A stretch of DNA of 64,000 bases from an uncultured virus (IMG/VR IMGVR_UViG_3300032132_000750) (taxonomy: Duplodnaviria; Heunggongvirae; Uroviricota; Caudoviricetes): IMG/VR virus record IMGVR_UViG_3300032132_000750; one strand, written 5' to 3'. Both the position numbers and the translations under genes were made by a program. The notes beneath the pieces were generated by a model, which saw only the letters and a list, made by a program, of their open reading frames with translations, was not told the DNA's origin and did not search any database. The first letter of the stretch is position 1. Each line of letters begins with the position of its first letter. Positions 1,333 to 57,048 of this stretch are shown in pieces.

Positions 1333-1812
1333 GTGGATAGGAGATTGCGAGAGGCTGAGCGTTTAGCTGTACAGGGAGATTTTACAGCTATTACCTTGCT
1401 TCGAGCAATGTACACAAAAACTGGCATCATCAGTAAAGCAATACACGTTAAATGCGCCTACAGCGGTCGCGGAGAAAAAGGATCTCTCCACGCTGTTGAT
1501 CCGTTTATGCCAGAAAATTATTCAAAACACCTATGTCATGGTCTCAACACAGTAGGAAATCCTTTTCTAGGCTTTCCTACCTGTAAACCTTGTATAAAGT
1601 TAGTTATTGCGGGACGGGTAGAGTTTCCAAACAAAAAAGCTACTATCAGGTTTCACGGAACAACGGGTCCTAAAATGCGGTTTAATGAGGAAACCCAAAA
1701 ATGGGGATGTCCTTGTAATGTCTGCGAAAATGTTCGTAAAACATGGAAACCTGCCATAGCTAAACTGCGCCTCACCTCAATGATGAGATTTCCGAGAGAG
1801 TGGAGAACGTAG
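1333..1812 (+). CDS. Hypothetical protein, N-terminal DxxLRxLER module, Cys motifs
   Basis: GTG start after GGGGAG; begins MDRRLREAER; CxxC motifs. Confidence 0.65.
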   Translation: MDRRLREAERLAVQGDFTAITLLRAMYTKTGIISKAIHVKCAYSGRGEKGSLHAVDPFMPENYSKHLCHGLNTVGNPFLGFPTCKPCIKLVIAGRVEFPNKKATIRFHGTTGPKMRFNEETQKWGCPCNVCENVRKTWKPAIAKLRLTSMMRFPREWRT

Positions 1813-1915
1813 AGCGTTGAACATTGGGCTTAGTCTACCGAGATGCAGGTCTTGGTCTTCGTTCTTGCTTAGTGTGTTGCTAGGTGCTAAGCTCAATGTT
1901 CAACGTTCTGCGTTC
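1805..1915 (+). ncRNA. Long hairpin with 30-bp heptad-repeat stem (family member 1)
   Basis: 1805-1834 pairs with 1886-1915 with only G-U deviations. Confidence 0.6.
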
Positions 1916-1925
1916 GGGAGCCTTA

Positions 1926-2255
1926 ATGAGTCGAACTAATAGCCCTTGTTCCAACTGTAATTACAGCGTTTATTCTGATGACGACCACGACTGTATTGTC
2001 GCAGATCGGGCTGTAGAGCACCCGAATCAATTTCCTTCCAAGGCTCATTGGGTGATTCTTACCTTTGATAAGAACCCAGCCACCGGATACCATAATAAAC
2101 CGGAATACAGAGCTTATTTTTCTGAGCCAAGCTGGAAGCAGAAAATAGCAGAGCTTACTGAGCAAGAAGCTCTCTTTACTGCGTTCAAAGCGTCTAAAGC
2201 AGCTAAAATCACTACCCAAGTTTCAATTGACATTGACATAGAGGAACCTCAATGA
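1926..2255 (+). CDS. Hypothetical protein
   Basis: ATG after GGGAG, in frame with ORF 1884. Confidence 0.6.
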   Translation: MSRTNSPCSNCNYSVYSDDDHDCIVADRAVEHPNQFPSKAHWVILTFDKNPATGYHNKPEYRAYFSEPSWKQKIAELTEQEALFTAFKASKAAKITTQVSIDIDIEEPQ

Positions 2256-2403
2256 ACACGCCTTCTCCCTGCGATACTTGCCAGCACTGCTACACTGACC
2301 CCCTTCAGAAGAACAACCCGGATAATGAATCCGAGTGCAAGAAGGATGTCAAGGACCAACACTGGGGCGACGAAAACTGTCCGCTCTTTGAAGTCAAGAA
2401 TTA

Positions 2404-2631
2404 GTGCCGAGGCCCGTTAAAGCGCCTACATCTGAACTTGACCCCCGTGGAGCGGAAGTAAATGCGACTGTCATTCTTCCTATCTACTTGCAAGGTGTTC
2501 AGTTTGAGCCTGGTATGACGAATCAGGAAAAACAAGAAAAGCTTGCACAGCTAGCTCTCAAAGTATTACGGGAGCATGGAACACCAGAACCCATCATTCA
2601 CGAATGTAGTGATGAGGATCTTGTCGAATAA
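2404..2631 (+). CDS. Hypothetical protein
   Basis: 75-aa ORF in a co-directional run. Confidence 0.5.
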   Translation: MPRPVKAPTSELDPRGAEVNATVILPIYLQGVQFEPGMTNQEKQEKLAQLALKVLREHGTPEPIIHECSDEDLVE

Positions 2632-2679
2632 AACAAGTAGGCCCTAATTAGGGTCCATTCTCGTTTATCGAGGATGGTT

Positions 2680-2750
2680 TGAGCACTGGTCTAACAGAAA
2701 GATGGTGTGCTTCTAACACGTCGATGTAGGTGCAAATCCTACGTGCTCAT
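2680..2750 (+). tRNA. tRNA-Arg(TCT), atypical (TGCAAAT T-loop)
   Basis: Acceptor TGAGCAC/GTGCTCA, D stem GTCT/AGAT, anticodon loop CTTCTAA, T arm GTAGG-TGCAAAT-CCTAC; no encoded CCA. Confidence 0.7.
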
Positions 2751-2754
2751 TTTA

Positions 2755-2951: not shown

Positions 2952-2955
2952 TCTG

Positions 2956-4684: not shown

Positions 4685-6217
4685 ATGCCAAAAACACCCA
4701 AACATTGCGTTCGAACAGGACCCAACACTCTTGAGATTGAGGGTGTTGAGGTCAAAAACCGCATCTACGCTAATGAAGATGTGCCTGTTGAAGATGACGC
4801 CGTCGAAGAACTCAGATCCTTGCTCGAAGTTCAGAAAACGGCTGACGCTATGTACAAAGCTAAGCCAAATTGGTTTACTAAGAAGCCTAAGATTCTTCAG
4901 GTAAACCTTTCACCGGACTTTCATAAAGGTGCGGGAATTCCTATCGGAACCACTTTGGTCACAGAAGGAATGGTTATACCGCAAGCAGTTGGAAACGACG
5001 TTAACTGCGGAGTCCGTCTTCTTCGACTTGGAATTCGTGCTGATGCCTTGATTGGTGGACTAGACAATTTAGAGCCTGTTTTACGGAAAATTTTCTTCGA
5101 GGGGGGTCGTAATATCGCGCTCTCTCAGGAACAAAGAAAATCTATAATCGGCTCTGGGGTGATGCATCTAACCAAAGAAGTCCGAGAAAACGAAGATGCC
5201 AACAGCATCTGGAAATACTTTAATCAACGAAGACACAACCTAGAACTAAGTAAAACCCGCCATAACGGGGGTTTCAATACAAACGGAAACTCTTTTGGGT
5301 TGGAGGATTACCTCACCCGGAGAGGTATTAGCCGTGACTCCCAAATAGGAAGTATAGGAGGCGGTAATCACTTTGTTGAACTACAGGTAGTGAAGAAAAT
5401 TCACAACAGGACTATGGCTCATCACTGGGGTCTCCGAAAAGGCCGAGTGGTAGCGATGATCCACAGTGGGTCTGTAGGAATCGGACACCTGTGCGGAGGG
5501 CTCTACAATACAGTTGTTCGTGATATCTATAAAAAAACAGGGCTTAAGTTTCCAGATAACGGTATTTTTCCGCTTCCCGATGCTATTCCTGAATTCAAAC
5601 GTTTTTGGACGATGCTCCATAATGCTGCGAACTTTGCATTTGCCAATAGGATGTTTCTGGGGCTCATGTTACAACAGGCTATCGCAGAAGCCTATGAGTT
5701 CGCCCCCTCCCTAAATCTACTCTACGATACTCCTCATAATCTGGCCTGGCCTGCAAACAACGAAGGTCACATTGTTCATCGTAAAGGTACAAGCCCGGCC
5801 TGCGGAAATGAGTGGAGCTTTAACCGAGGATTTGAGCGTCCTTGCGGAGAACCAGTCCTGATTCCAGGATCTATGGGCTCATCAAGCTTTATTATGCAAG
5901 GATTGGGTAATTCAGACGCGCTCTACTCTGCCTCTCATGGTGCGGGCCGTTCTTTGAGTAGGGGTAAGGCTCTGAAATTTGATGATGAAGCCTTTCAGGC
6001 ATTTCTGAGAGACTTCCGCATCATTACTCCCATTGATCCTAACAGAAAAGATATAAAGAGTAGAAAGGACATTCTCAAAAAATATCACGAATCACTGAAG
6101 AAAGAGGCTCCGTTCGCCTACAAGGATGTCTATCCGGTTGTAAACACTTTGCGAGATGCTAAGATCGCTGATCCCGTAGCAGAGTTAAGTCCCATCCTAA
6201 CTCTCAAAGGAAACTAG
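4685..6217 (+). CDS. rtcB: RtcB family RNA ligase (3'-phosphate/5'-OH)
   Basis: PDFHKG, GNDVNCG, GGGNHFVE, HSGS, HRKG, PGSMG, SHGAGR, EAPFAYK motifs. Confidence 0.95.
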   Translation: MPKTPKHCVRTGPNTLEIEGVEVKNRIYANEDVPVEDDAVEELRSLLEVQKTADAMYKAKPNWFTKKPKILQVNLSPDFHKGAGIPIGTTLVTEGMVIPQAVGNDVNCGVRLLRLGIRADALIGGLDNLEPVLRKIFFEGGRNIALSQEQRKSIIGSGVMHLTKEVRENEDANSIWKYFNQRRHNLELSKTRHNGGFNTNGNSFGLEDYLTRRGISRDSQIGSIGGGNHFVELQVVKKIHNRTMAHHWGLRKGRVVAMIHSGSVGIGHLCGGLYNTVVRDIYKKTGLKFPDNGIFPLPDAIPEFKRFWTMLHNAANFAFANRMFLGLMLQQAIAEAYEFAPSLNLLYDTPHNLAWPANNEGHIVHRKGTSPACGNEWSFNRGFERPCGEPVLIPGSMGSSSFIMQGLGNSDALYSASHGAGRSLSRGKALKFDDEAFQAFLRDFRIITPIDPNRKDIKSRKDILKKYHESLKKEAPFAYKDVYPVVNTLRDAKIADPVAELSPILTLKGN

Positions 6218-6999
6218 TGGCACGCAAAGAAAGATTAGATCGATATATGGATAGTTTTGTCGAAACCTTTGACAAATTTTGTAAAAAAAGGGCTATTAAG
6301 TCTTTAGATGAAGAAGCTAAAATACTACTTTTCCAGATTTTTATGGATACCTTTGATGACACCCCTCCCAACAAACGTAGCAGAAAACGCTAACAATGGT
6401 TCCTGAGTGTCTTTCTTGCCATCACAACATCTGGCTTCTTAAACGCCTTTATGCAAGAAAAAAAGACGCAGCCGAAAAGCAGTTACTAGCTTTGGAAAAA
6501 GCAATTAACAGAGTTATTGTCTATACTCGTGCTTGTGATAGGCACCCAAGATTTTCGCTTCTTGACGCGGTAGCCCCCACCCAAATTGACCATGAGAAAA
6601 TCTTTCTCGTCCCGCATTCAAGAGTATGACATGGCCAGCTTTGGGCCACATCACAACGAATTTGATAGAACCTGGCTTTTGTGGAAAGATTATTTCACAA
6701 TAGCTATTTTTGACTTTCCGTTATTCATGATTCGTATATATAAATGGCCGGATAAAAAGAAATCAACTTTGGTATTAGCTCTTTTGGGCTTCACTCTTAC
6801 TTTTGTAAGCACCCGCGAAAGAACTCTATGATTGACACTGACTGGATCATGACATCGTCCCTCAAGCACGATGATTTTTGTCTTAGAGTAATGGCGAAAT
6901 ACGCACCTTCACATAACGGGCCACTACAGCGCTGGGAAAAATTCCTAGATATCAGACGATTGGTTAGCAAAGTAAAAGCTTTTGCTAAGAATCGTCCAA

Positions 7000-8289
7000 A
7001 TGGCTAGCATAGCAGAAGTTCTTCCTGCTATCATCGCTGCTTTAGAAGCAGACACGTCACTGTCTATGCAGGGAGCATCGAGACAGTTTGGGGTTAATTT
7101 CTCTACTTTGCGAAACGCTCTTATGCGTGGTGGTCGCGAAGACCTCGTTAAAAGAAAACGAACGGCCATTATCCCCGAGGAGAAGCAGAAGAAACTTGCT
7201 GCGCTAATCTCGCTTCTCGATTCCGATTCTAGCTTGTGCATCACACCTGCGGCAAAACGTCTAGGGATTCTGCCCAAAACAGCGCTTAACTGGTTGGAGC
7301 GGGCCGGGATCAAGGACGAGTATCTCCTTAGAACAGAAAAGAGAAAGAAAAAAAGCAGGTCATTTGCTTACAATAAGCTAGTAAAGGACCTTCGGGCGAA
7401 CCCAACCACTAATGCAAAAACCCTCTGCAAAGAAAAAGGACTTTGCTATGACACTTTTCTAAAGTGGGCTAGGGTCAACGCATCAGAACTACTTAAGAAA
7501 AAGAAACGTCACCCCAAAGAACTTAAAACTAAGGTTTTAGCTGAAGTCCGTGCAGAAATGGTCGCTCAGGGCAAATGCAATCTAGCAGTTCTTTGTAGAA
7601 AGCATAAGCTCAACACTAGAACTGTAGGAGATTGGATCAAAAAGTCCGACATTGAATACGTCGGAGCCCGGACAATCATCACAGATGAGCAAAAAAGAGA
7701 TTATTTTGAGCGGGCAGTAGTAGTTCTAGATGCGGATCCAAAACTAACTATTGATAAAGCATCAGAAATGATTAGCGTAGGGGTAACTACTTTACGGAAT
7801 ATCTTAAATGCTAGGGGGAGAAGCGATCTACTTCAGCGACATTTAACCGCTAAACATAGTTGGAAGAAATACAAGCTACAGAAAAAGGTAATCAGAGAGC
7901 TTGAAACTACAAACTTTCCTATAAGTGTTGTTGCTCTCAAATACAATATTACTACAGAGACTTTGAAGCGATGGCTTAATGCTGCTGATCGCCTGCAGGA
8001 ATTTCTTGGAAGAAGACTAGCAAAATCTGATTACACTTCCTTTGAAATAGGAAACTGCTATCTTCTAGGTAAAAAGGCTTATCTTGCTACACCTGTTTGT
8101 TTAATATCAAGAGACCCTAAAAATGGTAGGGTCGGGCAAGGCTATCCAGTTCCCGGCCTTTACAAACGAGCAAAGGATGACTTTACCTCCAGGGATCTTG
8201 CTAATGCATGGGGTCTGGAAACCCTTTCTGAATTAGACGATGTTGTTTACCCATATTTTGACTACATTCGTTTGCTGCGGGCCGCCTAG
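7000..8289 (+). CDS. Basic protein with about six tandem helix-turn-helix-like repeats
   Basis: Repeated units such as ASRQFGVNFSTLRN, AAKRLGILPKTALNW, ALKYNITTETLKRW; start chosen at ATG 7000. Confidence 0.65.
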   Translation: MASIAEVLPAIIAALEADTSLSMQGASRQFGVNFSTLRNALMRGGREDLVKRKRTAIIPEEKQKKLAALISLLDSDSSLCITPAAKRLGILPKTALNWLERAGIKDEYLLRTEKRKKKSRSFAYNKLVKDLRANPTTNAKTLCKEKGLCYDTFLKWARVNASELLKKKKRHPKELKTKVLAEVRAEMVAQGKCNLAVLCRKHKLNTRTVGDWIKKSDIEYVGARTIITDEQKRDYFERAVVVLDADPKLTIDKASEMISVGVTTLRNILNARGRSDLLQRHLTAKHSWKKYKLQKKVIRELETTNFPISVVALKYNITTETLKRWLNAADRLQEFLGRRLAKSDYTSFEIGNCYLLGKKAYLATPVCLISRDPKNGRVGQGYPVPGLYKRAKDDFTSRDLANAWGLETLSELDDVVYPYFDYIRLLRAA

Positions 8290-8387
8290 TCTGTAAGTCT
8301 ATATTTTTTCGTCAAACTAAAGCTTGAAACTTCTCCTCTGGTCGGGATACTTGGGGTAGAGAGTTCCGATTCCATAGAAAGTTTAAT

Positions 8388-9686
8388 GTGACTCAGGTTG
8401 AGCCTATCCACGACATATCGTTCCTAGAACGAACCATCGAGCAAGTTGTTTCTCGCAAAGAGCTTGTAGAACGTCTTGCTAGCGGTAAACAGCTCCGTAT
8501 CAAGTACGGAGTGGATGTGACCGCTGCTTTCCTGCATACAGGACACGCAGTTAATCTCTGGATGATGCGTTGGCTTCAAGAGCGAGGCCATAAAGTAGTT
8601 TTTCTGGTCGGGAACTTCACTACTCGAATAGGTGATCCTACAGGAAAAGACAAAACCCGAGCCATCATCGATCCTGAAACAATCGAAAAGAATGCAGAAG
8701 AGTTTATTAAGCAAGTAAGCACTATTTTGCTTACTGATCCCGAGGTCTTTGAGATTCGTCGTAATGGTGACTGGTATGACCAGATGCCACTAGATGATTT
8801 TTTCAAGCTCATCGGTCGGATTACTCATGGGCACCTCGTGTCTCGTGATATGTTTAGGAAAAGAATTGCCGAGGGTAGTTCAATCCACATGCACGAATTC
8901 CTCTATCCTGTGCTTCAGGGTTGGGATAGCGTTGTCCTTAAGAGTGATCTAACCATTGTTGGTAGTGACCAGCTATTTAATGAGATGATGGGACGAACCT
9001 TCCAACAGCAAGAAGGTCAGGACCCTCAGATCATTATCACAACCAAAATTACTCCGGGTCTTTGTGGAAAGAAGAAACAAAGCAAGAGCTTGGGCAACTA
9101 CATAGCTCTGGCCGACACCCCACGAGATAAGTTTGGGAAGATAATGAGTATTCCTGACTCGTTAATCGTCCCCTATTTCAAAGTCTATACCGACGTTCCG
9201 ATGCACGCGGTAGAGGCCGCAGAGAAGCTCCTAAAGCCTCTGGGAGATATTCCTGCCTGCAACCCCATGCCCATAAAGAAGGATCTTGCTGCAAAACTAG
9301 TTGAACGATATCACGGAAAAGAAGCTGCGCAGCAAGAGCGTGATTGGTTTGAAGAGACTTTCAGTAAAAAGAAGATTCCTGACGATATTCCAGTTATCAG
9401 AATAGAGCATATGACTACGGTCATGGAGCTTCTTAAAATCTGCAAGCCAGATAGTAGCAATAGTGCTATTCGTAAGCTAGTTGAGGCTGGCGCTGTTAGG
9501 CTTGATAATCAAAAACTACAAATAGAAGCCCTCAAGCACGGGTATGCGCTAGCTTTGTTAGCCATAAAACGTGATACTCACGCAAACGACTTTAATTGTG
9601 AGACTGAAACCGAAGCGATACTTAAGATCGGAAAGCGGTCCTGGTTTAAGGTTATTATGCCTGCGGCTCCTGAAAAATCCGAGTAA
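8388..9686 (+). CDS. tyrS: Tyrosyl-tRNA synthetase
   Basis: KYGVDVT..LHTGH, YPVLQGWD, GSDQLFN, KQSKSLGN, C-terminal S4-like domain. Confidence 0.95.
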   Translation: MTQVEPIHDISFLERTIEQVVSRKELVERLASGKQLRIKYGVDVTAAFLHTGHAVNLWMMRWLQERGHKVVFLVGNFTTRIGDPTGKDKTRAIIDPETIEKNAEEFIKQVSTILLTDPEVFEIRRNGDWYDQMPLDDFFKLIGRITHGHLVSRDMFRKRIAEGSSIHMHEFLYPVLQGWDSVVLKSDLTIVGSDQLFNEMMGRTFQQQEGQDPQIIITTKITPGLCGKKKQSKSLGNYIALADTPRDKFGKIMSIPDSLIVPYFKVYTDVPMHAVEAAEKLLKPLGDIPACNPMPIKKDLAAKLVERYHGKEAAQQERDWFEETFSKKKIPDDIPVIRIEHMTTVMELLKICKPDSSNSAIRKLVEAGAVRLDNQKLQIEALKHGYALALLAIKRDTHANDFNCETETEAILKIGKRSWFKVIMPAAPEKSE

Positions 9687-9688
9687 AT

Positions 9689-10645
9689 ATGTTTGAATCT
9701 ACTCTGAAATCTATTCTTGATTCCTTCGGAGGGAAAAAGTTTCAGCTTTCTCCCGAAGTCCAAAATGCCCGCATTGCTAATCTCTACACAAAAGCAAAGC
9801 GTGATCAATGGAATCTTGACGATCAAGATTATTTTCCAGAAACAGATACCGGCGATCTTAACGAGTGGTTAGGAATTACAGATGAGGTGCGGATAGCCGC
9901 TGCTCGCACTTTTTCCTCCTTTTATTATGGAGAGCAGGGAGCTAAGATCATCTCTGCCCAGCTTTCTACTATGGCTCCTACGGCAGAGGCATCTAAGTTT
10001 TTAGCTACGCAAACGATGGACGAAGCACGTCACGTTGAAACCTTTGAACGGATCCTACTTCTAATCGGCGGTATTCAACCCATCAACCCCTTTCTTAACG
10101 CGCTGCTCAGCGATATTGATCGCTCCTCGTCACTGGCAGAAAAGTTATTGGGGATGAATCTTCTTATTGAGGGATTAGCCTTATCTGCGTTTAAGGCTAC
10201 CATTGCGGCGCTGAGACCTGGGGTTAATATCTCAGAACAAGGTTATCGCGCTTTAGTAGCCCCAATCGAAAACATTATTCGGGATGAATCCCGTCATGTA
10301 GGCTTTGGGGTGCTTTTTCTTCCTGAAGTTCTTTCAAAACTCAACCGATTGCAAAAAACAAAGCTTCGGATGCGGCAAGCCTTTTGGCTCGCACTTCTTT
10401 ATGGAAGTGTTAAGTACCATCAAGCAGATCAAGAGTTGATTGGAATCAACTATCTGAAGCTTCTTAAAGAAGTGATCGAAGATCATGAGAGGCGGCTCCG
10501 TGACTGCGGAGGAGACGCTTTCATCTCTACTGATTTAATGAAAACTATGGTCCCTAAGATGGACAAGGTTTTCGATACTGTGCGTAGTCGTTTCGGCGGG
10601 CCTGAGCTTAATACAAAAGAGTTATTGGAGGTTCTAGACCAGTGA
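9689..10645 (+). CDS. Ferritin-like diiron protein (AurF/desaturase-like fold)
   Basis: Two E...DExRH motifs (GEQGA..DEARH; IEGLA..DESRH). Confidence 0.75.
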   Translation: MFESTLKSILDSFGGKKFQLSPEVQNARIANLYTKAKRDQWNLDDQDYFPETDTGDLNEWLGITDEVRIAAARTFSSFYYGEQGAKIISAQLSTMAPTAEASKFLATQTMDEARHVETFERILLLIGGIQPINPFLNALLSDIDRSSSLAEKLLGMNLLIEGLALSAFKATIAALRPGVNISEQGYRALVAPIENIIRDESRHVGFGVLFLPEVLSKLNRLQKTKLRMRQAFWLALLYGSVKYHQADQELIGINYLKLLKEVIEDHERRLRDCGGDAFISTDLMKTMVPKMDKVFDTVRSRFGGPELNTKELLEVLDQ

Positions 10646-11262
10646 AATTGTTGATGGTGGGAGCACCCGGAGTTGGTAAAGGCACCCAGGCTAAAAAATT
10701 GAGTGCTCGGCTCAATATCCCACACGTCTCAACCGGTGATCTGCTTCGATGGCATGTTGCTAAAGAAACTTCCCTGGGTTTGCGCGCAAAAGAGTATATG
10801 GATCGAGGAGAGCTTGTTCCACACATTATCGGTATGGTTCAATATCGCCTAGACAGGGCTGATTGTGGGTCTGGGTTCATCCTAGATGGATATCCACGCC
10901 GCCTACGTCAAGCTAAGGCGATGGAAGATATTACGGAATTTGACAGAGTAATATCCTTGAGTGCTCCGGCCAGTATTATCGTAGAAAGGCTTTCTGGACG
11001 ACGACTTTGTAAGTGTAGTGCAGTCTACCATCTCGCAGATCAACCACCCCAAATTGAAGGTGTGTGCGATAAATGTGGAGAAGCCCTATACCAACGTGAA
11101 GATGACAAGCCAGAAGCAGTTCAAACACGACTAGAGCTTTTCAAAGAAGTTACCCATCCACTAGTTGAGCACTATTCAGGACGAGGGATAATACTAGAAA
11201 TTGACGGATCCGGTAGCCCAGAAGAAGTAGAAGCATTAATTACAGAGGGCCTAGATGTCTGA
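10642..11262 (+). CDS. adk: Adenylate kinase
   Basis: GAPGVGKGTQ, STGDLLR, GFILDGYPR, Cys-containing LID, QREDD. Confidence 0.95.
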   Translation: MKLLMVGAPGVGKGTQAKKLSARLNIPHVSTGDLLRWHVAKETSLGLRAKEYMDRGELVPHIIGMVQYRLDRADCGSGFILDGYPRRLRQAKAMEDITEFDRVISLSAPASIIVERLSGRRLCKCSAVYHLADQPPQIEGVCDKCGEALYQREDDKPEAVQTRLELFKEVTHPLVEHYSGRGIILEIDGSGSPEEVEALITEGLDV

Positions 11263-11713
11263 ACAACCGCCGTTTATTATTCCTAGCATATTTCTAGTTA
11301 AAGCTCACCTCTACGGAAGTGATGTTCAAGATATAGAGTGGATAAGCCCTACTAATTGTAGTGTTAGAACTACATCAGGTCATGAATTTTCCATCGACAA
11401 TGATCTTTTCATGAAAATACTCACAAAAACAATAGAAGATGTTGCAATAGCGGAAAAAGATGAAACTTGGGGTCCGTGGGGTTGGCAAAACAAGCCCGAA
11501 ACTATTTCCAAACAGGCCGCAGATTTCTCTGAAATACTTTTTAATCTTTCAAAACTAAAGGGCATCCCCGAAGAAGCACGAACACAGCTAACCGAAGCGG
11601 CTTTACTTTGCAGCGAAGCGTCTTATACTGTGGTTGGTGAAGACCCCGCTAAAGACGGGCTCCTTACAGAAGTTCGTGTTGCGATGGAGGAAAAAAATGG
11701 ATCTTCGGTTTAA
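11255..11713 (+). CDS. Hypothetical protein
   Basis: 152-aa ORF coupled to adk. Confidence 0.55.
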   Translation: MSEQPPFIIPSIFLVKAHLYGSDVQDIEWISPTNCSVRTTSGHEFSIDNDLFMKILTKTIEDVAIAEKDETWGPWGWQNKPETISKQAADFSEILFNLSKLKGIPEEARTQLTEAALLCSEASYTVVGEDPAKDGLLTEVRVAMEEKNGSSV

Positions 11714-12221
11714 GTTAGAGAAGCACTCTCCCGCCATAGAGTACATTGCTAAGCGTATTGCGGGATTGATTAGTTCGGATACCAGTAAGGCTCCGCAAAT
11801 TTTTGATCGTTCAGCGTCGCCTGATGAAGCACTGCACAGTTCGGATTCTTACCAACTAGGGGAATCAAACGATTGGTGGCTTCGATATTACCCGAATGAC
11901 AATGAAATCGCTGTCATCTATCGATATGGCGGCAGTCACGTCTCCGAGATGGAAGCCCTAGCTGAGTTCATTGTTAAGTTTCTGCAATTGGGCTGGCTCA
12001 ATAGACCGGTAACACCAAATCGACGCATCCAAGAGATTCAGGGCGGAGATGTAAAACTAACCCAGAAAAGTAGTTTCTCCTATTCCTGGGAGCAGGGATA
12101 CGAGAAGCTCGACTCCAAACATAACGAAAAAAGCGGAGGATTCTCCTTTAGTGGTTCCTACCATCCTAATGGAACTTGCGAGGGTGGGGGTGTCTGCAAA
12201 CACTGCGGGAAAACGCTATGA
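11697..12221 (+). CDS. Hypothetical protein
   Basis: ATG after GGAGG; C-terminal CxxC. Confidence 0.55.
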   Translation: MDLRFKLEKHSPAIEYIAKRIAGLISSDTSKAPQIFDRSASPDEALHSSDSYQLGESNDWWLRYYPNDNEIAVIYRYGGSHVSEMEALAEFIVKFLQLGWLNRPVTPNRRIQEIQGGDVKLTQKSSFSYSWEQGYEKLDSKHNEKSGGFSFSGSYHPNGTCEGGGVCKHCGKTL

Positions 12222-16417: not shown

Positions 16418-18295
16418 ATGCCCCAAGTTTATATTGATGGCAAGCGTGTCCGCATTAACACCAATAACAGTATTGGCAAAGGCGGGGAGGCTGAAATCTT
16501 TGAACTTTCTAATGGTCAAGCATTAAAGCTGTTCAAACAGCCCGGCCATCCGGACTTCCTCACTACCGATGAAAGTATGGCGGCAGAAGCTAGACTAACT
16601 GAGCATCAAAAGAAACTTCCGTCTTTTCCAAAAGGGCTTCCGCGCAGAGTTATTACTCCTATGTCGCTGGCTCGTGCAGGTAAAGGAAAAAATAGCCCTA
16701 TTGTTGGGTATACCATGCCCTTTTTGAAGGGAGCGGATCTTTTATATGATTATTCTCGGAAGAAGTTCCGTGCTGGTATTTCTAATCAAGTAGTCGTTGA
16801 TATCTTTAAGGATCTACACCAAACTGTTCGCGGGACACACCGAGCGCATGTTGTTATTGGTGATTTTAACGATCTTAATATTCTTGTTGTTTCGGGGAAA
16901 TCTGCAGCGTATCTGATTGACGCAGATAGTTTCCAATTCGGGGCCTTTCAATCTCGAATGTTTACACAACGATTTGTGGATCCGATTTTGTGTGAAGCTT
17001 CTGAACTACAACTAGCTCAACCGCACAACGAAGACAGTGATTGGTATGCCTATAACGTCATGCTGATGCAGTCATTGCTTTTTGTGGGTCCGTATGGTGG
17101 TATTCATCGACCTAAAGATAAAACCAAGAAAGTGCCTCATGACGCGCGGCCCTTGCATCGTGTGACAGTATTTGATACTGATGTCAGATACCCGAAACCC
17201 GCGATCCCCTATAAAGTTTTGTCTGACGACGTTCTACATTATTTCCACCAAGTCTTCCAAAAAGACGTTAGAGGGATCTTCCCTCTGCGTTTGCTGGAGG
17301 AAATGCACTGGACTACCTGTAAGAAGTGCAATCTAGAGCACGCCCGCAATATCTGTCCCGACTGTTCCACAATGGTTACTGGAGTCGTTAAACAGATCGT
17401 CATTATTCGTGGAAAAGTCAAAGCCACCCGAATCTTTGAAACAAAAGGGCCTATTCTTCACGCGGCTTCCCAAAAAGGTAAGTTGTCTTGGATTCATCAT
17501 GGTGATGACAAGTATGTTCGCAGTGCCCAAGGTGAGCGAGATCAAAACCTTCTCAACGGAAAACTAGACCCGAAGATTCGATATAGAGTTTCTGGTGATA
17601 GATCCTTCATCGCTAAAACTGGTGTTGTAATCGAGATGGCGAACAGCAAGAGAACAGGAGTGGATAACTTCCGAACTCTTCCGATTTTCGACACTAATAG
17701 TGAGAAACTCTTCTATCTCAGTGGAAGCCAGCTTTTGCGAGAAGACGATATAGGATCTGCCTATATTGGAGATGTTTTACAGGGACAAACACTTCTCTGG
17801 GTTGGAGAAAAGTTTGGATTTGGTTATTACGCTCTCGGATCTGTCTACAATGGCTTTGTTTTTGACACAACAAAGCGCGGATTAACAGAAGTTACCCTCC
17901 CTAAAATCCCCGGCCAGCTAATTGACTCTACTTGTGTCTTCTCAAAGAGCTTGGCCTGGGTTTTCCTGTCTAATCAGGATCGAGGTAAAACATACAATCA
18001 CTGTGTAGTGATTGATAAAGCTGGACAAATCGTAGGAATGACCAAGGCCAGCACAGATGATCCTGGGAAAAATGTCTGGTTGCAGCAAATACGGGGTAAG
18101 TTTGCAGTAGGTAATCAACTTTATTCTCCAACGGACGACGGCATCGTCCGTGCAGAGCTAGTTAATGGCTCCTTTAATCTGAAAGAATTCCCAGATACAG
18201 AACCTTTTGTTGATAGCTCTTGTCAACTATTCCCGGATAGCAGTGGAATTTACGTCGTAAGCACACACGAAATAGTAAAACTCCAGATAGGATAA
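16418..18295 (+). CDS. Ser/Thr protein kinase-like (TerY-P kinase type) with Zn ribbon and beta-rich C-terminus
   Basis: IGKGGEA, ALKLF, VVIGDFNDLNIL, IDADSFQ; CKKC..CPDC. Confidence 0.85.
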   Translation: MPQVYIDGKRVRINTNNSIGKGGEAEIFELSNGQALKLFKQPGHPDFLTTDESMAAEARLTEHQKKLPSFPKGLPRRVITPMSLARAGKGKNSPIVGYTMPFLKGADLLYDYSRKKFRAGISNQVVVDIFKDLHQTVRGTHRAHVVIGDFNDLNILVVSGKSAAYLIDADSFQFGAFQSRMFTQRFVDPILCEASELQLAQPHNEDSDWYAYNVMLMQSLLFVGPYGGIHRPKDKTKKVPHDARPLHRVTVFDTDVRYPKPAIPYKVLSDDVLHYFHQVFQKDVRGIFPLRLLEEMHWTTCKKCNLEHARNICPDCSTMVTGVVKQIVIIRGKVKATRIFETKGPILHAASQKGKLSWIHHGDDKYVRSAQGERDQNLLNGKLDPKIRYRVSGDRSFIAKTGVVIEMANSKRTGVDNFRTLPIFDTNSEKLFYLSGSQLLREDDIGSAYIGDVLQGQTLLWVGEKFGFGYYALGSVYNGFVFDTTKRGLTEVTLPKIPGQLIDSTCVFSKSLAWVFLSNQDRGKTYNHCVVIDKAGQIVGMTKASTDDPGKNVWLQQIRGKFAVGNQLYSPTDDGIVRAELVNGSFNLKEFPDTEPFVDSSCQLFPDSSGIYVVSTHEIVKLQIG

Positions 18296-24601: not shown

Positions 24602-24612
24602 CAGCTAGGGGT

Positions 24613-24683: not shown

Positions 24684-24684
24684 T

Positions 24685-39253: not shown

Positions 39254-39259
39254 CCCGTT

Positions 39260-40140: not shown

Positions 40141-40151
40141 ACGAGGTAACA

Positions 40152-40352: not shown

Positions 40353-40359
40353 AAACAAA

Positions 40360-40630
40360 GGGCTGGTAGCTTAGAGATTGGTATAGCACAAAGAAGATTA
40401 GGCACAGAGCGTAAGCTCAACGATACGACCTGAAAACAGGTTATGCTGTATCAGGATGTTTCGGTGCCGAAAGTAGTAAAGTTCTTCCTTTCGAGGCCGA
40501 TAATTACTGCGCCCCACAATACACTTGTGGGGTTAAAGGACTCTTCCCTAGACAAGACCCACATCGCTTTCGGGCGTTACAAGTTGAGTCAGGAAATAGC
40601 GTAATCTCAAGTGGATGAGAATTCCACACT
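40360..40630 (+). ncRNA. Candidate structured ncRNA
   Basis: ORF-free; CTTAGAGATTG near the 5' end can pair with TAATCTCAAG near 40602; several short hairpins. Confidence 0.4.
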
Positions 40631-40631
40631 T

Positions 40632-41026
40632 GGATCAGGCAACACAAGAGAGATTGCAGTAATGCAATCAGGGCGGTGAAGATGCTACGGGTGCAAATCC
40701 TAACTGGTCCTTATCCTTGAAGGTTGGAAAACCTCAGTCATTGATCCTCCCATGTTGGAGGTATGTGGATGAGAGAATGTGGAACCTTACAGTAGGTTGA
40801 AGTCCTACACTTGGATCGGGCAACACAAGAGGTGATTGCTAGTGGCGAGCTTCCAATGGAAGTTAGCAGCGCTAGGGCCTTCGGGCAACAATTACGGTAA
40901 GGTGAATGCTATGGGTGCAAATCCTAACCGATCCTTTGGATCAGACGACATTGGACAAGCCGCAAGGAATTGTGGCGAAAGCCTGCTTGAATGATGTGCG
41001 TTACGGGTGCAAATCCTGACTGGTCC
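40632..41026 (+). ncRNA. Three related tRNA-like units (40632-40710, 40813-40934, 40938-41026)
   Basis: GGATCRG...GGGTGCAAATCCT-RA-CYGRTCC with compensatory changes. Confidence 0.65.
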
Positions 41027-41029
41027 GTG

Positions 41030-41116
41030 TTTCTCGATAGTTATGCAGGATTGAATCGGCATAGCAAAACGACCAGATCGGCTAGTTGACGGTTCCGGTG
41101 AAAGTCCGGCGGGAAG
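41030..41116 (+). ncRNA. tRNA-like RNA, degenerate
   Basis: TTCTCG/CGGGAA closing stem, GTTATGC/GCATAGC hairpin, CCGG-TGAAAGT-CCGG T-like arm. Confidence 0.4.
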
Positions 41117-41318
41117 CTTTGCAGTAGATGTAGGAAAGAACACCTTGAGGTTGAAAGACGATCCCCTCGACTTTCGTTATCCCTCGGTGTTGGGTCAAAA
41201 AAATTGGGTTTGTTATACAGACCTGGTGAAAAAGCAGCATTAAGTTGGCTACAAGACTCCCCTACATCTCTGCGCTACACAACTCAAGACAAGTCTCGGC
41301 ACGAGACAAGGAAAAAAC

Positions 41319-41843
41319 TTGAACAACGACGAGAACAAGAACGAGATTCCCAAGCCTGTTGGCAAACCCTACGAGCAAGCCGAGAAGTCCATCGACCCCG
41401 ATGGCAAGCATCGTGCCGCTCGGGCAGTAAAGGCCGAAACACCTTTGTCCGACGAAGAGCGTGCAGAGCGTGCAAAGCGCGATGAAGAGCGTCGTGCAGA
41501 GCGTGCAAAGCTTCGCGAGGAGCGTCGTGTAGAGCGTGAGAAGCGCGATGCAGAGGAAGAGGCACGGCTTCGTACGCAGTTGCGCGCAGACTGCATTACG
41601 GCCTGCGAGACGTGGCCTGTGCGTCAGCTTCGCACGCTCGAAACCACGGTCTCCAACCTGGCTCTTGCAGGAGTGCTGACTGAGTCAGTTGTAGCTTCTG
41701 TCTCCAAGATCAGCGATGAGAAGAGTGCAACGGCTGTGCTGGCTGAGTTGCTCGCGGAGCGCAAGGTTCGTGAAACGCTTGAGCGTGAGCGTCGTGAAAA
41801 CGACGAGCGTGAGAACACGGACGAGAACCGCGTTCAAGCCTAA
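41319..41843 (+). CDS. Arg/Glu-rich coiled-coil protein
   Basis: TTG start after AAGGA; ERAERAK-type repeats. Confidence 0.65.
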   Translation: MNNDENKNEIPKPVGKPYEQAEKSIDPDGKHRAARAVKAETPLSDEERAERAKRDEERRAERAKLREERRVEREKRDAEEEARLRTQLRADCITACETWPVRQLRTLETTVSNLALAGVLTESVVASVSKISDEKSATAVLAELLAERKVRETLERERRENDERENTDENRVQA

Positions 41844-41849
41844 AATCTT

Positions 41850-41949
41850 AGTCCTATAGTGTTAATGGCAGGGTAGATGAGCCCACCCAGGTTCATTGCT
41901 AGCACGCCGAGTTATATCGGTAGACGGGGTTCGATTCCCCGTAGGACGC
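41850..41949 (+). ncRNA. tRNA-like RNA with enlarged D arm and 6-nt anticodon loop
   Basis: GTCCTA/TAGGAC, GTGT..GCAC enclosing an insert, GCCGA-GTTATA-TCGGT, CGGGG-TTCGATT-CCCCG. Confidence 0.55.
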
Positions 41950-42246
41950 TTTCAGAACATTGAGCGCTGGACGTAGAACAAGGTGGCTGGAGTTATTGGA
42001 CAAACATCCGGAGGCATATAGCACTCGCTTTGAGAGTTGCGAAGTCCTCTCGGCGGTGCTAGAATGGGCGCGCGGCATTGCTCCGTAACGCTACTCTCTG
42101 ATAAAGAGACGTGCGTTGTTGCATGAGCCAAGGCGATAACGGTTCCGTTGTTGTTGGTGCAACGATGTTTTTAGGGGCGGGTAAACCGTTCCGTGTTCGA
42201 CGGCAAAAGTGGCTGCGTTCTACGTTCAGCGCTCAATGTTCTGAAA
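41950..42246 (+). ncRNA. ~297-nt RNA closed by a 30-bp heptad-repeat stem (family member 2)
   Basis: 41950-41979 pairs with 42217-42246 with one G-U. Confidence 0.65.
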
Positions 42247-42407
42247 AGTTCAGGTGATTAGTATGATTCAACTTGCATGTATCTTTGATTTTGGTCTCTG
42301 CTTCGTAGTTGGGGGGCTTGTTCTCGCGGCAACAGGTAAGACCTTTCACTGGTGCTTCAAAAAGAATTGCAGCGATCATCAGCACTGAATAGTTTCAAAA
42401 TAAACTA

Positions 42408-42480
42408 GGGGGCGTAACTCAATTGGTAGAGTACCGGCCTTTTAAGCCGTTTGTTGCGAGTTCAAGTCTCGCCGCCCCTA
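42408..42480 (+). tRNA. tRNA-Lys(TTT)
   Basis: Canonical cloverleaf, anticodon loop CTTTTAA, T loop TTCAAGT. Confidence 0.93.
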
Positions 42481-42509
42481 TTTTTAACCCTCAACCGATT
42501 CCGAATGAA

Positions 42510-46873: not shown

Positions 46874-47146
46874 ATGAGAGTTCTGCTTCTAAGCAACGAT
46901 GACATCATCGTAGGCGTTGTAGTCTGCGATAACGACACCTTTAAGCGCGTTTGGGTGCTTGAGGAATGGTGGGATGATCCCAACATACCTTGTAATGACC
47001 TTGGTGCGCTAGTTAGCGTTGATACGGTAACGCATGATGATCCAGCCATTCTGGATGAATTCTGTCAAACCATAGTCAACTCTGACGACGGAAACTACAT
47101 CGAAATCGCTCCCTGGTCCTTTAAGACCTGGGGCCTAATCCCATGA
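46874..47146 (+). CDS. Hypothetical protein
   Basis: 90-aa acidic ORF. Confidence 0.5.
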   Translation: MRVLLLSNDDIIVGVVVCDNDTFKRVWVLEEWWDDPNIPCNDLGALVSVDTVTHDDPAILDEFCQTIVNSDDGNYIEIAPWSFKTWGLIP

Positions 47147-47162
47147 TAGAAAAGCGTGAATC

Positions 47163-48068
47163 TTGACCGAGACTGCAACAGCCACATCGCGGGCCGGTGT
47201 TCCTTATCCGATGACAAGTGCGATCCTTGCGTCTAAGGACACCGCAATCGGTGTTGTTCCTGAGTGGAATCCAGTGAACGATGAGCAACGTGCTTTTCTC
47301 GAAAAACACTTTAATCCCACCCGCGAGGAAGTAGGGACTATTGAGGAGATTGAGTCTGTAGCCTCCCCTGATGAAGCGGTAGTAAACGCCTTTCTCAAGG
47401 AACGTGAATTCTCCATTGAACTTGAGCCGCTCGGAGAAGACGAGTACGGAATGGCATCCGTACTCGACTATCCGTGGAAGTGGTTGGAAGAGGGTGATGA
47501 GGACTGCATCAACTACGACAAGGGTGTGGCTGCGGCTACACTTAGTGCTGGCATATCTTTCTTCAAGACCGGAGCTATCTTTGGTGGCGATGATGATCGG
47601 ATCCTGGTTCGTATTCAGACTCAAACTGAAGACGTAATTTGGATGACGATGGAATCCGCCCCCGCTGTGGATTTCGATCTTGTGCTCCAGGCACAGATGC
47701 TTCAAGCGAAAGCGCGAGAAGACGATAGCATCAAGTATGATGCGGTTACTTTCCCGATGATCGACCTTGACCTTGAAACACAGGTTGATTGGTTGATTCA
47801 GATGTGGGGGCTCAACGAGCACGGCCAGAAAGCTACAATCACCCAAGCATTGCAGCAGACTAAGCTGCGGATGAATGAGGTTGGTGGTCGATGTCAGAGC
47901 GCGGCAGCCGTTGCGGCGTGCCTGGAATCTTGTATGGTAGGGCCGGAAAACCCCTTCATTATCGACAAGCCTTTCCTCCTGTGGGTTGAGCGGCCTTCTT
48001 TGAGCCAGCCCTTGTTTGCTCTGCATCTCTGTGAGGATGTTTGGAACAAGCCGGAGGATCTCGAATAA
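47163..48068 (+). CDS. Serpin-like protein (shortened N-terminus)
   Basis: Q.TKLRMNEVG...AAAVA hinge and FIIDKPFLLWV serpin signature. Confidence 0.7.
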   Translation: MTETATATSRAGVPYPMTSAILASKDTAIGVVPEWNPVNDEQRAFLEKHFNPTREEVGTIEEIESVASPDEAVVNAFLKEREFSIELEPLGEDEYGMASVLDYPWKWLEEGDEDCINYDKGVAAATLSAGISFFKTGAIFGGDDDRILVRIQTQTEDVIWMTMESAPAVDFDLVLQAQMLQAKAREDDSIKYDAVTFPMIDLDLETQVDWLIQMWGLNEHGQKATITQALQQTKLRMNEVGGRCQSAAAVAACLESCMVGPENPFIIDKPFLLWVERPSLSQPLFALHLCEDVWNKPEDLE

Positions 48069-48335: not shown

Positions 48336-48440
48336 GGGCGGATAGTTTAACGAAGGGTGAATGGTTCGACCACGCTCTGACAGGTAAAACGAAGCGCATT
48401 TATCTTTCGCTTCATGCAAGTTCGAATCCTGCTCTGCCCA
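48336..48440 (+). ncRNA. tRNA-like RNA with D-loop insertion and 11-nt anticodon loop
   Basis: GGGCGGA/TCTGCCC-A, GTTT..AAAC, GAAGCG/CGCTTC, GCAAG-TTCGAAT-CCTGC. Confidence 0.55.
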
Positions 48441-54971: not shown

Positions 54972-55752
54972 AGCAATCATCCTCGTGTTCGCGGAAACAA
55001 TCGTCGTGGCATTGTCTACAGAACCATTTTTCGCACTCATCGCATTTTCTCATGAATTCGTCATCGGCATTACAGTCGCCCTCACATAATATGTGCTTGT
55101 GCTCGCAACCGAAACAAACTCTAGCACATTCTTCACATCTCAACTCCTCACAGTTATTACATCTGAGACCGCAGTTACTACAGATTGGGGTAGCGCAATC
55201 ACATTCTGTTATTGTTTCTTTGTCTACAACTGCTTCGCACTCATCGCATATATCACGGCCTGTTCGATCAAGAGCATTACGGTAAGCACCCCACGCTTCG
55301 TCAGACCTAGTCGAAATCCACTCACGCTCAAGAGCACGTAGTTTATCGTCGGCATTACGACGGTAAGGGCCGGGATTCAGCTCATATTGCTTTCGTAAGT
55401 CTTCTAGTTCATCGAAATTATCAACTCCAGATGATTCTAGAGCGTCCAATAGAATATTAAAGGGAGTCTTTCCTGTAGTGAGTTGCTGTTTTCCACCTAT
55501 TAACCAATCTTTAACACCATTACGTGCTCCCGTATAGGCTGCGAAGTGGATTTCTTTTAATCCTCGAAGCGTTATACGCTCTCCAGCATTTTGTAAGATT
55601 TGAAGGGCGAGATCTCTACCTACATCTTGCAACTCAATTACAGGTATGTGGAAGGCATAACTCAGAAATTCTCGCACCATAGCTATTGGAAATGTTTTTC
55701 CAAGAGTAAGAATATCGGCTGTCATTACTTCGCGAGTTAATCTTTGTGGCAT
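54964..55752 (-). CDS. Protein with internal RRN + DxxLRxLER module and poly-CxxC C-terminus
   Basis: YRRNADDKLRALER followed by many CxxC. Confidence 0.65.
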   Translation of the reverse strand: MPQRLTREVMTADILTLGKTFPIAMVREFLSYAFHIPVIELQDVGRDLALQILQNAGERITLRGLKEIHFAAYTGARNGVKDWLIGGKQQLTTGKTPFNILLDALESSGVDNFDELEDLRKQYELNPGPYRRNADDKLRALEREWISTRSDEAWGAYRNALDRTGRDICDECEAVVDKETITECDCATPICSNCGLRCNNCEELRCEECARVCFGCEHKHILCEGDCNADDEFMRKCDECEKWFCRQCHDDCFREHEDDCYE

Positions 55753-55761
55753 AAGGATATT

Positions 55762-56718
55762 TTACCAATACCCTGGGTTTTCTTCAAAGCCTTCTTGCTC
55801 AAGAGAATCCTGATGGGCCTCTAATGCATCTAAGGCTTCAGGCAAGTTAAACACACTAGCTACGCTATAGGGGCTCTGAAAAATAGTTTCTTGAGGCATT
55901 CTTGTTGGACTTGCAGCTTCGATAATATCATCGTTTCTGATACGGACGTCTCTATCACCGCTTTGTGGTGGGTAAACCACTAGAGGCGCAGATCTTACTG
56001 GATTATTGGGAAATTGGGCTATTGTTAGCCTAAACTGAGAACACAACGCATTAGCTGGATCTCCAGGTAAGATTCTTAATCTATACCAGCCATTACGAGG
56101 ACTAAGCCCACCACCACTGAGTCGTCCGCTTCGATAAAACCAGAACCCCCAACATGGATCATCGTAATCATCTACAATCGATTCATGGTCAGGCCCGCAA
56201 TAAATTTCGGGATAAAACTCCTCAATAGGTCTTTCTGGAAAAGTGTGTAGGATACTGTGTCGTGTTGCTGGATCTTGTTCCCAACCGATCAACTGAGCAT
56301 ATTCGTCGAATGACCACCTACGTCCTCTGATGTTATTTGAGGGGGTAGGTCTTCGAAAATGTCTTATTACTAAAAACCGATAGCCAGCATTGAAGGCTAA
56401 TTCAATGAAGGGATGAACGGCTACATCTTCATTAAGCTCTAATATGATAGATTCAGTAAGCTCTAATATGATAGATTCAGGTTCGTGGCCTAAAGAAAAA
56501 GTGGTTGCACCATAAGCATTAGGCCAAGAGTCAAAATCAACATCGCGATGTTGTCTGGCGTCTATCACTGCCACGTCTGCGTCGCGTAAAGGATCTGGAG
56601 TAAGGGTTTCTGCTCCACCAACAACTCTTTGTAAAGCATTTATGTATGCTTGCACTGAGGAAGGTATCTCAACATTTGTGATTAATCGCTCTAATCTTCG
56701 TAACTCACGATCTGACAT
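55762..56718 (-). CDS. Hypothetical protein, N-terminal DxxLRxLER module
   Basis: MSDRELRRLER; TG-A-TATACT 6 nt upstream. Confidence 0.65.
   Translation of the reverse strand: MSDRELRRLERLITNVEIPSSVQAYINALQRVVGGAETLTPDPLRDADVAVIDARQHRDVDFDSWPNAYGATTFSLGHEPESIILELTESIILELNEDVAVHPFIELAFNAGYRFLVIRHFRRPTPSNNIRGRRWSFDEYAQLIGWEQDPATRHSILHTFPERPIEEFYPEIYCGPDHESIVDDYDDPCWGFWFYRSGRLSGGGLSPRNGWYRLRILPGDPANALCSQFRLTIAQFPNNPVRSAPLVVYPPQSGDRDVRIRNDDIIEAASPTRMPQETIFQSPYSVASVFNLPEALDALEAHQDSLEQEGFEENPGYW
56433..56480. repeat. Perfect 24-bp tandem duplication within CDS
   Basis: TAAGCTCTAATATGATAGATTCAG x2 (ESIILEL twice). Confidence 0.85.
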
Positions 56719-56747
56719 AAACTAAGTATATCATTTTACACCGGGCC

Positions 56748-56775
56748 TTGACTCATCTACTTAGATCTGTATAAT
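56748..56775 (+). promoter_or_regulatory. Sigma70-type promoter for ncRNA at 56785
   Basis: TTGACT-16 nt-TATAAT. Confidence 0.7.
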
Positions 56776-56784
56776 CGAGGGCAT

Positions 56785-57048
56785 AAGAGCGCCGAGCGCT
56801 AGAACTAAAACGGAGAACACAGAATCCGGCCTGAATTTCAAACCCCTGATGTTGGACGACATAGCTTCTTCGGAAGCAACTAACAAAGTAAGCCACCGCT
56901 TACATTCTGAGTTCATCGCTACGTTTTATACTAGCTTTGACGATGCATGTTGCGGGGACAAAGTTCAAATCAGTTCCGAAGACATCGGGTAGGGGCGAGG
57001 CTCCCAGATTCTGTGAGATACGTTCTACGTTCTACGTTCGGCGCTCTT
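56785..57048 (+). ncRNA. ~264-nt RNA closed by a heptad-repeat stem (family member 3)
   Basis: AAGAGCGCCGAGCGCTAGAAC pairs with GTTCTACGTTCGGCGCTCTT, followed by a T-run; own promoter. Confidence 0.65.

Follow-up and report, generated by a model that had tools for sequence, protein, structure and literature searches.

What purpose is served by long inverted arrays of seven-nucleotide repeats scattered through a phage genome? The question is raised by a 64,000-nt stretch of DNA (hereafter the window) from an uncultured virus of the Caudoviricetes (IMG/VR IMGVR_UViG_3300032132_000750). In this stretch an earlier reading, made without database searches (the sequence-only reading), described three dispersed RNAs at 1805-1915, 41950-42246 and 56785-57048, each closed by a stem in which GAAC-type heptads pair with GTTC-type heptads. 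We refer to these elements as E1, E2 and E3, and our analysis adds E4 and a doubtful E5. The quoted sequences and heptads are present at all three places, and our analysis indicates that E1-E4 are phage members of a widespread, already known but unexplained class of heptamer-array repeats and not a new kind of RNA. The stems of E1, E2 and E4 look selected to pair as + strand RNA, and it is probable that the stems act as RNA. With somewhat less than even confidence, we propose that they are RNase III-type processing sites of cassettes that resemble the intervening sequences (IVS) of 23S rRNA and carry non-coding cargo.

The long stems are real features of the window. A search for inverted repeats with arms of at least 16 nt, lying up to 600 nt apart, returned 45 pairs, the three longest of which are the E3 pair (56785-56829/57004-57048; 45 nt, 71%), the E2 pair (41950-41979/42217-42246; 30 nt, 97%) and the E1 pair (1805-1833/1887-1915; 29 nt, 90%). 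When G.U pairs were tolerated, uninterrupted 30-bp stems were found on the + strand for E1 (4 G.U) and E2 (1 G.U), the next-longest + strand stem being 20 bp with 7 G.U and the longest - strand stem 21 bp. The + strand folds of E1, E2 and E3 reach -67.7, -145.5 and -97.8 kcal/mol, with z scores against shuffles of -8.29, -8.55 and -5.38, and no shuffle matched the native fold for any of the three. The 7-nt period is equally real, with in-register triples at period 7 numbering 4 for GRRC and 6 for GYYC, against 0-1 at periods 5, 6 and 8-11 (0.1 expected). Consistently, GYTCNNNGYTCNNNGYTC with at most one mismatch matches 17 times in the window against 1.96 expected, with 12 matches in E1-E3, 1 in E5 and 4 elsewhere. 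The element arms can be read as 3-6 heptads.

E1-E4 are all intergenic and inverted with the GAAC-type arm first, their interiors span 51-237 nt, and the coordinates that follow refer to the + strand. E1 comprises a 5' arm at 1805-1834 (GAACGTA GAGCGTT GAACATT GGGCTTA G), an interior of 51-53 nt (1835-1885) that folds into two small hairpins, and a 3' arm at 1886-1915 (GCTCAAT GTTCAAC GTTCTGC GTTC). Its 5' arm overlaps the stop codon (TAG, 1810-1812) of the open reading frame (ORF) at 1333-1812, and its 3' arm is directly followed by GGGAG (1916-1920) and then the ATG (1926) of the next ORF, so that E1 occupies exactly the gap from a stop codon to the Shine-Dalgarno sequence of the following gene. 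E2 pairs a 5' arm at 41950-41979 (TTTCA GAACATT GAGCGCT GGACGTA GAAC) with a 3' arm at 42217-42246 (GTTC TACGTTC AGCGCTC AATGTTC TGAAA), and its 237-nt interior (41980-42216) has z scores of -2.03 (+ strand) and -1.31 (- strand) when folded alone. A non-canonical tRNA-like gene (41851-41948), called by neither ARAGORN nor Rfam, ends 2 nt before the E2 stem, and tRNA-Lys(UUU) (42408-42480) lies 161 nt downstream of the element.

E3 looks like a self-contained RNA gene. Its 5' arm at 56785-56829 (AA GAGCGCC GAGCGCT a GAACTA AAACGGA GAACACA GAATCCG G), in which the heptad register shifts first by +1 and later by -1, pairs with a 3' arm at 57004-57048 that ends in GTTCTAC GTTCTAC GTTCGGC GCTCTT. 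The folded stem is built of 14+8+4+9 bp (about 35 bp), interrupted by single-base bulges and one 5x5 loop, and the 174-nt interior (56830-57003) has little structure alone (z -0.24). The promoter and T-run that the sequence-only reading ascribed to this element are both present. A sigma-70-like promoter, TTGACT-16-TATAAT (56748-56775; 11/12 match), ends 9 nt before the stem and is the best promoter-like site in the region, and the T-run TCTTTTTCT (57045-57053) at the foot of the stem forms a terminator-like tail. Only two + strand sites in the whole window reach a promoter match of at least 11/12, namely that of E3 and one preceding tRNA-Leu. A 47-aa ORF in E3 has neither a Shine-Dalgarno sequence nor a homologue (even the ORF itself does not come up as a called gene), and none of the element interiors holds a supported ORF. 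The interiors are also unrelated to one another, as the sequence-only reading had noticed, since blastn among the five element interiors returned self matches only.

Looking for further inverted heptad pairs in the window, as the sequence-only reading had advised, yielded E4 and the doubtful E5. E4 was found by the G.U-tolerant scan as a 17-bp stem with 3 G.U, formed by arms at 39903-39919 (GAACGCT GGGCATT AAG) and 40028-40044 (CTT GAT GTCC AGT GTTC), and it sits in a 2-kb stretch without a + strand ORF of at least 80 aa. E5 (58617-58766) has a 3' side, TTCAACGTTCTACGTTC, that almost equals the E1 3' arm; it lies within the coding sequence at 58556-59674, encodes the peptide STRFNVLRS and has a weak stem (z -2.19). 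In homologues of this protein at 66-78% identity the segment is retained as coding sequence without a gap, and E5 was therefore rejected as an inserted element and is not counted as a member.

One indication that the stems matter as RNA comes from the way in which their arms have diverged. Mismatches were counted in ungapped alignments with a strand-symmetric score, and the observation that all deviations in the first two stems are G-U compatible is borne out. The E1 arms form 26 Watson-Crick (WC) and 3 G.U pairs in 29 bp, the E2 arms 29 WC and 1 G.U in 30 bp, and the E4 arms 14 WC and 3 G.U, with zero other mismatches in each case. Thus, 7/7 non-WC positions in these three elements are G.U on the + strand, compared with 30/171 mismatches in 38 comparable stems from other genomes (Fisher p = 1e-5). 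The bias persists for E1 and E2 alone (p = 0.0012), a comparison that leaves out E4 because the G.U-tolerant scan through which E4 was found would bias the count. Folding energies show the same strand preference, with E1 at -67.7 on the + strand vs -39.6 on the - strand and E2 at -145.5 vs -111.3, while E4 falls from -56.5 (z -5.75) on the + strand to -48.7 (z -1.32) on the - strand, where its closing stem is lost. In addition, the 3' arm cores stay GYTC while the 5' cores drift from A to G (GGAC, GGGC, GAGC), and triples number 6 for GTTC|GCTC vs 1 for GAAC|GAGC. This asymmetry fits pairing plus wobble, not a symmetric DNA site. The claim of selection on RNA is borne out, with the caveat that the E3 arms are no cleaner than those of the class at large.

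The sequence-only reading did not recognise the family, and here our searches lead to a different answer, as the arms are GTTC/GAAC tandem heptamer arrays that are widespread in phages and bacteria. A first pattern requiring exact arms gave 5 IMG/VR matches, without partner arms. A degenerate arm pattern built to match E1-E3, GTTCWACGTTCWRCGYTC, matched 59 loci in IMG/VR, with 3 to 10 heptamer units per array, and at least 126 loci in GTDB bacterial genomes, the bacterial matches listed including Acidobacteriota, Verrucomicrobiota, Geobacter/Geomonas, Planctomycetota, Prevotella, Chloroflexi and others. Five viral records are multi-copy, with 6-20 array matches each, against 0 for a reversed control pattern. 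Among the 185 loci listed, 132 have a single array within 700 nt and the remainder form inverted or direct pairs; adjacent opposite-strand pairs number 43 among them (29 with GTTC first, 14 with GAAC first). Rfam recognised 0 families in 20 inverted-pair loci of other genomes, and a literature search on the repeat strings returned nothing relevant. The Rfam check proposed for the window was likewise negative: at the gathering threshold the entire window yielded only 4 tRNAs, and in E-value scans of the element regions no match fell below E = 0.5.

Tandem heptamers of this kind are in print and unexplained. Rehm et al. (2015) describe, as unexplained, heptamer repeats in Xanthomonas (GGGAATC) and Nostoc (GGGGAYT); a Xanthomonas genome has 70-75 convergent pairs, and most of the repeats there are transcribed (PMC4692102). 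For Geobacter metallireducens, Aklujkar et al. (2009) report H4 elements as well as paired opposite-strand tandem octa- and heptanucleotide arrays, the latter under the name 'putative global regulator binding sites' (PMC2700814). The published repeats share with our elements about 3-6 tandem 7-nt units, an intergenic position and often two opposite-strand arrays at variable distance. They differ in unit, which in the window is GAAC/GTTC-type and not G-rich, making a G-quadruplex unlikely, and in setting, which here is a huge-phage genome; moreover, the arms of E1, E2 and E4 pair with G.U-only deviations and E3 has its own promoter and terminator tail.

One rival explanation lies at the DNA level: a small DNA-binding protein would occupy operator- or centromere-like arrays, one heptad per dimer, and the DNA enclosed by inverted arrays would thereby be looped or insulated. 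The omega (ribbon-helix-helix) repressor of pSM19035 is a precedent, binding contiguous 7-bp units, direct or inverted, at several dispersed sites. Omega arrays are contiguous and located at promoters, whereas those of the window are split by 51-237 nt, asymmetrically conserved and RNA-compatible. Across the class, tetramer cores are kept and spacers are often unpaired (G.T 18, A.C 19, other 60), and arrays may be single or in direct orientation, may immediately precede a Shine-Dalgarno sequence or may lie in the gap between divergent promoters, all of which would suit a protein-binding site, as would the published label of regulator sites (PMC2700814). Inverted ATAGGAC arrays in the viral record G004 (L156), with a 9-bp period, conserved cores and non-complementary spacers, look like protein-binding DNA. 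They are the inner members of intergenic nested arrays at 7780-8200 and 11540-11760, where the outer arrays consist of GTTCAAC/GTTGAAC heptamers. The window, too, encodes a candidate binder, a 435-aa multi-helix-turn-helix (HTH) protein at 6982-8289. This protein, encoded between RtcB and TyrRS, has at least 4 separate HTH matches (HTH_23, HTH_29, HTH_28, HTH_Tnp_ISL3) and no catalytic domain, and may be a multi-site DNA binder. However, the arms in the window are unequally kept, with the 5' cores drifting and the 3' cores held at GYTC, and the spacers pair perfectly or with G.U wobble only. Array-bearing viral records share no protein at a blastp threshold of 1e-4, except for G004 and G008, two overlapping pieces of a single phage, and a 7-bp period would put successive sites on different faces of B-DNA. 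We therefore regard a DNA operator as quite unlikely for E1-E4.

In a further viral contig, G006 (L157), five same-strand GTTCAAY arrays at 5230-11720 are each followed by a second tandem repeat (TTTCCCCA-like) whose runs reach the start codon of the next gene, with the inverted partner absent in 14 kb.

A second DNA-level explanation is that the elements are selfish or neutral, either foldback-like or resembling MITEs (miniature transposable elements with inverted repeats), or else inverted arrays made by slippage in non-essential gaps, such that the RNA stem would be incidental. The arrays are common to unrelated phages without common proteins and to many bacterial phyla, the cargo between inverted arrays in other genomes is arbitrary (3 to 558 nt, sometimes holding genes), and the heptad words have been rearranged between E1 and E2, with self-complementarity kept in each. 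The complete 42.6-kb phage G005 (L153-L154) also has three copies with a common interior. Nevertheless, arms as diverged as those of E1 (87-90% WC) show G.U changes only, unlike the class, and promoter and terminator tail frame E3 precisely. The target-site duplications that the sequence-only reading had named as a sign of MITEs were not seen by eye, the direct repeats in the flanks being at most 2-3 nt, and the interiors in the window are all different. Like MITEs, REPINs and Correia elements, the window elements are small, non-coding and multi-copy with terminal inverted repeats that would form hairpins in transcripts; they differ from these in having unrelated interiors and arms made of tandem short repeats instead of a unique terminal inverted repeat, and no transposase link was found. 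A selfish or neutral origin is unlikely on this evidence, though it retains some weight.

In G005 the three GAAC...GTTC elements (16931-17149, 17708-17886 and 20373-20550) have the topology of those in the window. Their common interior of 110-170 nt is conserved and terminates, beside the 3' arm, in a GGGCGG-TTTA-CCGCCC hairpin. A fourth array pair in this phage encloses a PF05635 gene.

PF05635, the '23S rRNA intervening sequence protein', connects the class to the intervening sequences of rRNA. Among the 185 loci listed, the cargo is a PF05635 gene in 5, from four independent genomes. A search starting from PF05635 gave 22 matches in five genomes, of which 17/22 lie between inverted tandem-array arms measuring 19-65 nt. 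These arms mostly have a 7-nt period and diverse units (AGTC, AAGG, AGGG, GAAC, others), and units identical to those of the window, GTTCTAC and GTTCAAC, form inverted arms around PF05635 genes. The helix-45 IVS of Coxiella burnetii carries an S23p/PF05635 ORF and has a 28-bp closing stem that RNase III cuts mid-stem in vitro (PMC4990558). The likeness to our elements lies in cargo closed by inverted terminal arms and a stem of about 28-30 bp, with RNase III cutting while the host transcript stays functional being a feature of the IVS (PMC4990558). Arms of GTTCTAC/GTTCAAC heptamers are likewise found in PF05635 cassettes of other genomes. E1-E4 further differ in having no PF05635 ORF, in lying outside rRNA, in their non-coding cargo of 51-237 nt and in a cleavage that is only predicted. 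No rRNA is present in the window, and the elements adjoin ORFs or tRNAs, or stand alone.

Long helices of the kind found here point to a candidate enzyme. Double-stranded RNA (dsRNA) of at least 20 bp is a substrate of RNase III, and near-continuous dsRNA of this length is predicted for E1 and E2 (30 bp each) and, with one bulge, for E3 (14+8 bp), E4 being borderline at 17 bp. Given that a 30-bp perfect helix is such a substrate and that IVS are excised in this manner, we propose the stems as processing sites. Two inverted 7-nt arrays, GAAC-type at the 5' side and GTTC-type at the 3' side, would bracket arbitrary cargo and, when read within + strand transcripts, would pair into a dsRNA stem of 17-35 bp. 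This stem would act like the closing stem of a 23S rRNA IVS, or like the processing stalks of T7 and rRNA, and cutting by host RNase III inside it would free the enclosed RNA and separate the flanking RNAs, which would be two mRNAs at E1 and the tRNA-like gene and tRNA-Lys at E2. E3 would be a stand-alone RNA gene whose closing stem and T-run may also end transcription. We infer transcription of the elements from the gene orientation and the E3 promoter, and we further infer RNase III cleavage and a function of the cargo RNA.

A second precedent for processing is found in phage T7, whose early mRNA has intergenic RNase III processing hairpins, and in rRNA, which has processing stalks. E1 resembles the former as a stem between genes, and E2, E3 and E4 resemble the latter as long stems flanking a candidate RNA; a family of similar stem sequences within one phage is also T7-like. 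T7 sites differ in being shorter, in having internal loops that direct single-strand cuts and in lacking tandem heptads, and cleavage of E1-E4 is a prediction. Other comparisons, with tRNA T-loop mimicry, the LexA GTTC-N7-GTTC box, CRISPR-repeat mimics, retron msr/msd and Y RNA/Ro60, were dropped, as the defining partner gene or spacing was lacking.

Several observations weigh against processing by RNase III. The enzyme does not explain the 7-nt period, which is probably an inherited property of the repeat class, reflecting its origin or its behaviour at the DNA level. No RNase III or dsRBD gene was found among the 83 window ORFs scanned. The arms of PF05635 cassettes have no sense-strand G.U bias (12 G.U, 24 A.C, 38 other), arm mismatches in the wider class are mostly transversions, and arrays also occur singly (132/185 loci listed) and in direct orientation, which together indicate that the heptad is not in the first place a property of dsRNA. 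RNA pairing is thus not the general function, nor a conserved property, of the heptamer-array class. Within the window, the E3 arms are as irregular as those of the class (32 WC, 2 G.U, 4 A.C and 7 other over 45 ungapped nt). Furthermore, all 7 G.U could stem from one-sided mutation of the + strand, from A to G or from C to T, and selection on a hairpin of + strand single-stranded DNA could also give the G.U bias.

The sequence-only reading envisaged a polymerising or processing protein on a shared handle; processing is plausible, RNase III being the default for 30-bp dsRNA, but nothing supports polymerisation on a periodic handle. In one version of this idea, the periodic dsRNA would be held by a binding or polymerising protein, such as a ring-forming PF05635/Avd-like protein, and would carry varied RNA cargo. 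The 7-nt period is kept despite the differing units, hinting at structural and not sequence reading, array arms bracket most of the PF05635 genes found, and the 3' arm cores in the window are better kept than pairing alone demands. On the other side, no PF05635 gene was matched among the 83 window ORFs scanned, single and direct arrays would be left unexplained, and a 7-bp period would mismatch the A-form repeat of about 11 bp, which leaves this explanation very unlikely. A broader version would treat inverted heptamer arrays as a universal RNA-excisable mobile cassette for any transcription unit (rRNA, tRNA clusters, operons), which the phage would have domesticated to release stable non-coding RNAs, with the 7-nt period as the handle of a dedicated ring-forming PF05635/Avd-type protein. 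We consider this broader version quite unlikely and put it forward as speculation.

The gene content near E1 suggests one further route for the cargo. The stems juxtapose 5' and 3' ends, and the phage RtcB ligase gene (4685-6217) lies 2.8 kb from E1, such that the cargo ends might be joined into a circle after cleavage, as happens with the bulge-helix-bulge of archaea. However, the perfect stems of E1 and E2 have no bulge-helix-bulge motif, a splicing endonuclease did not turn up in the scan of 83 window ORFs, tRNA repair is the role usually ascribed to phage RtcB, and the ends left by RNase III (5'-phosphate and 3'-OH) are not joined by RtcB. Circularisation is accordingly highly improbable.

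Tandem heptamers rank with the most common repeats of bacterial genomes that still lack an explanation, the published accounts offering only the guesses of G-quadruplexes or 'global regulator sites'. The phage copies look constrained to pair on one strand, and with E3 as a promoter-to-terminator unit they provide this ill-defined repeat class with an RNA hypothesis open to test, RNase III cleavage and cargo release, and tie the class to rRNA intervening sequences. If processing by RNase III is correct, these elements show a phage making several small RNAs with one simple portable processing module. If it is not, they are a further case of fast-changing filler DNA.

The window is a dense, near one-directional gene stretch of a predicted huge phage, and we read it as part of a huge marine phage. 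Besides RtcB, it encodes TyrRS, ArgRS, MetRS, an adenylosuccinate-synthetase-like gene, two-component genes and dispersed tRNAs. The probable source sequencing run, a DNA run and the sole run with the window, has a single contig of 196,317 bp across the stretch and zero variants at the elements. A contig of 859,269 bp is recorded as carrying the protein of ORF 58556-59674; should it belong to a phage, that phage is an unusually large one. A search with a 735-aa neighbour as query brought up IMG/VR relatives at only 44-48% protein identity, on contigs of 291 and 344 kb; the heptad pattern occurs in 0/3 records of these relatives, and a comparable element is absent both from the syntenic region and from the whole sequences. 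The closer relatives, at 66-78% identity to ORF 58556-59674, are known as proteins only, and no related loci were found in metagenome contigs or viral contigs. Against known phages, a 'distant' blastn search gave no match for 56000-58000 and matched 41800-42500 via the tRNA only. The 344-kb relative G002 (L062-L063) has a 21-24-bp non-heptad stem (GGTTCGAACCCTGGATGTCC...) that closes 104 nt at 40960-41111 and a second, 20-bp stem that closes 107 nt at 47046-47192; both could be closed RNAs of an analogous kind or else pieces of tRNA in inverted arrangement.

The tRNA-like gene before E2 (98 nt) is cloverleaf-like with a long extra arm and has a 7-bp stem with a 6-nt loop in place of the anticodon arm. 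Just upstream of it, an ORF at 41319-41843 contains 33-nt (11-aa) tandem repeats of a charged RAERAKRDEER-type motif. The stretch around E4 without + strand ORFs (39250-41200, about 2 kb) is rich in internal direct repeats (ATGCTAYGGGTGCAAATCCTRAC x3, ACACTTGGATCRGGCAACACAAGAG x2 and AAACTATAACCGCTYGTTGCAGGG x2) and may hold a cluster of structured RNAs that are large or novel. An Rfam E-value scan of this stretch was empty, and a motif derived from it gave 51 single matches that we judged uninformative. Within it lie three tandem tRNA-sized modules (40632-40710, 40813-40934 and 40938-41026), called by neither ARAGORN nor Rfam. A 7-bp stem closes every one of them; the outer two have GGATCAG/CTGGTCC, and the middle module has GGATCGG/CCGATCC, a compensatory change. 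Each module has a small GGGU-GCAA-AUCC hairpin resembling the T-arm of the window's tRNA-Arg. Elsewhere in the window, a 105-nt tRNA match at 48336-48440 scores 31 bits, and ARAGORN reports a 'tRNA-???' with a 2-base anticodon at 24612-24684.

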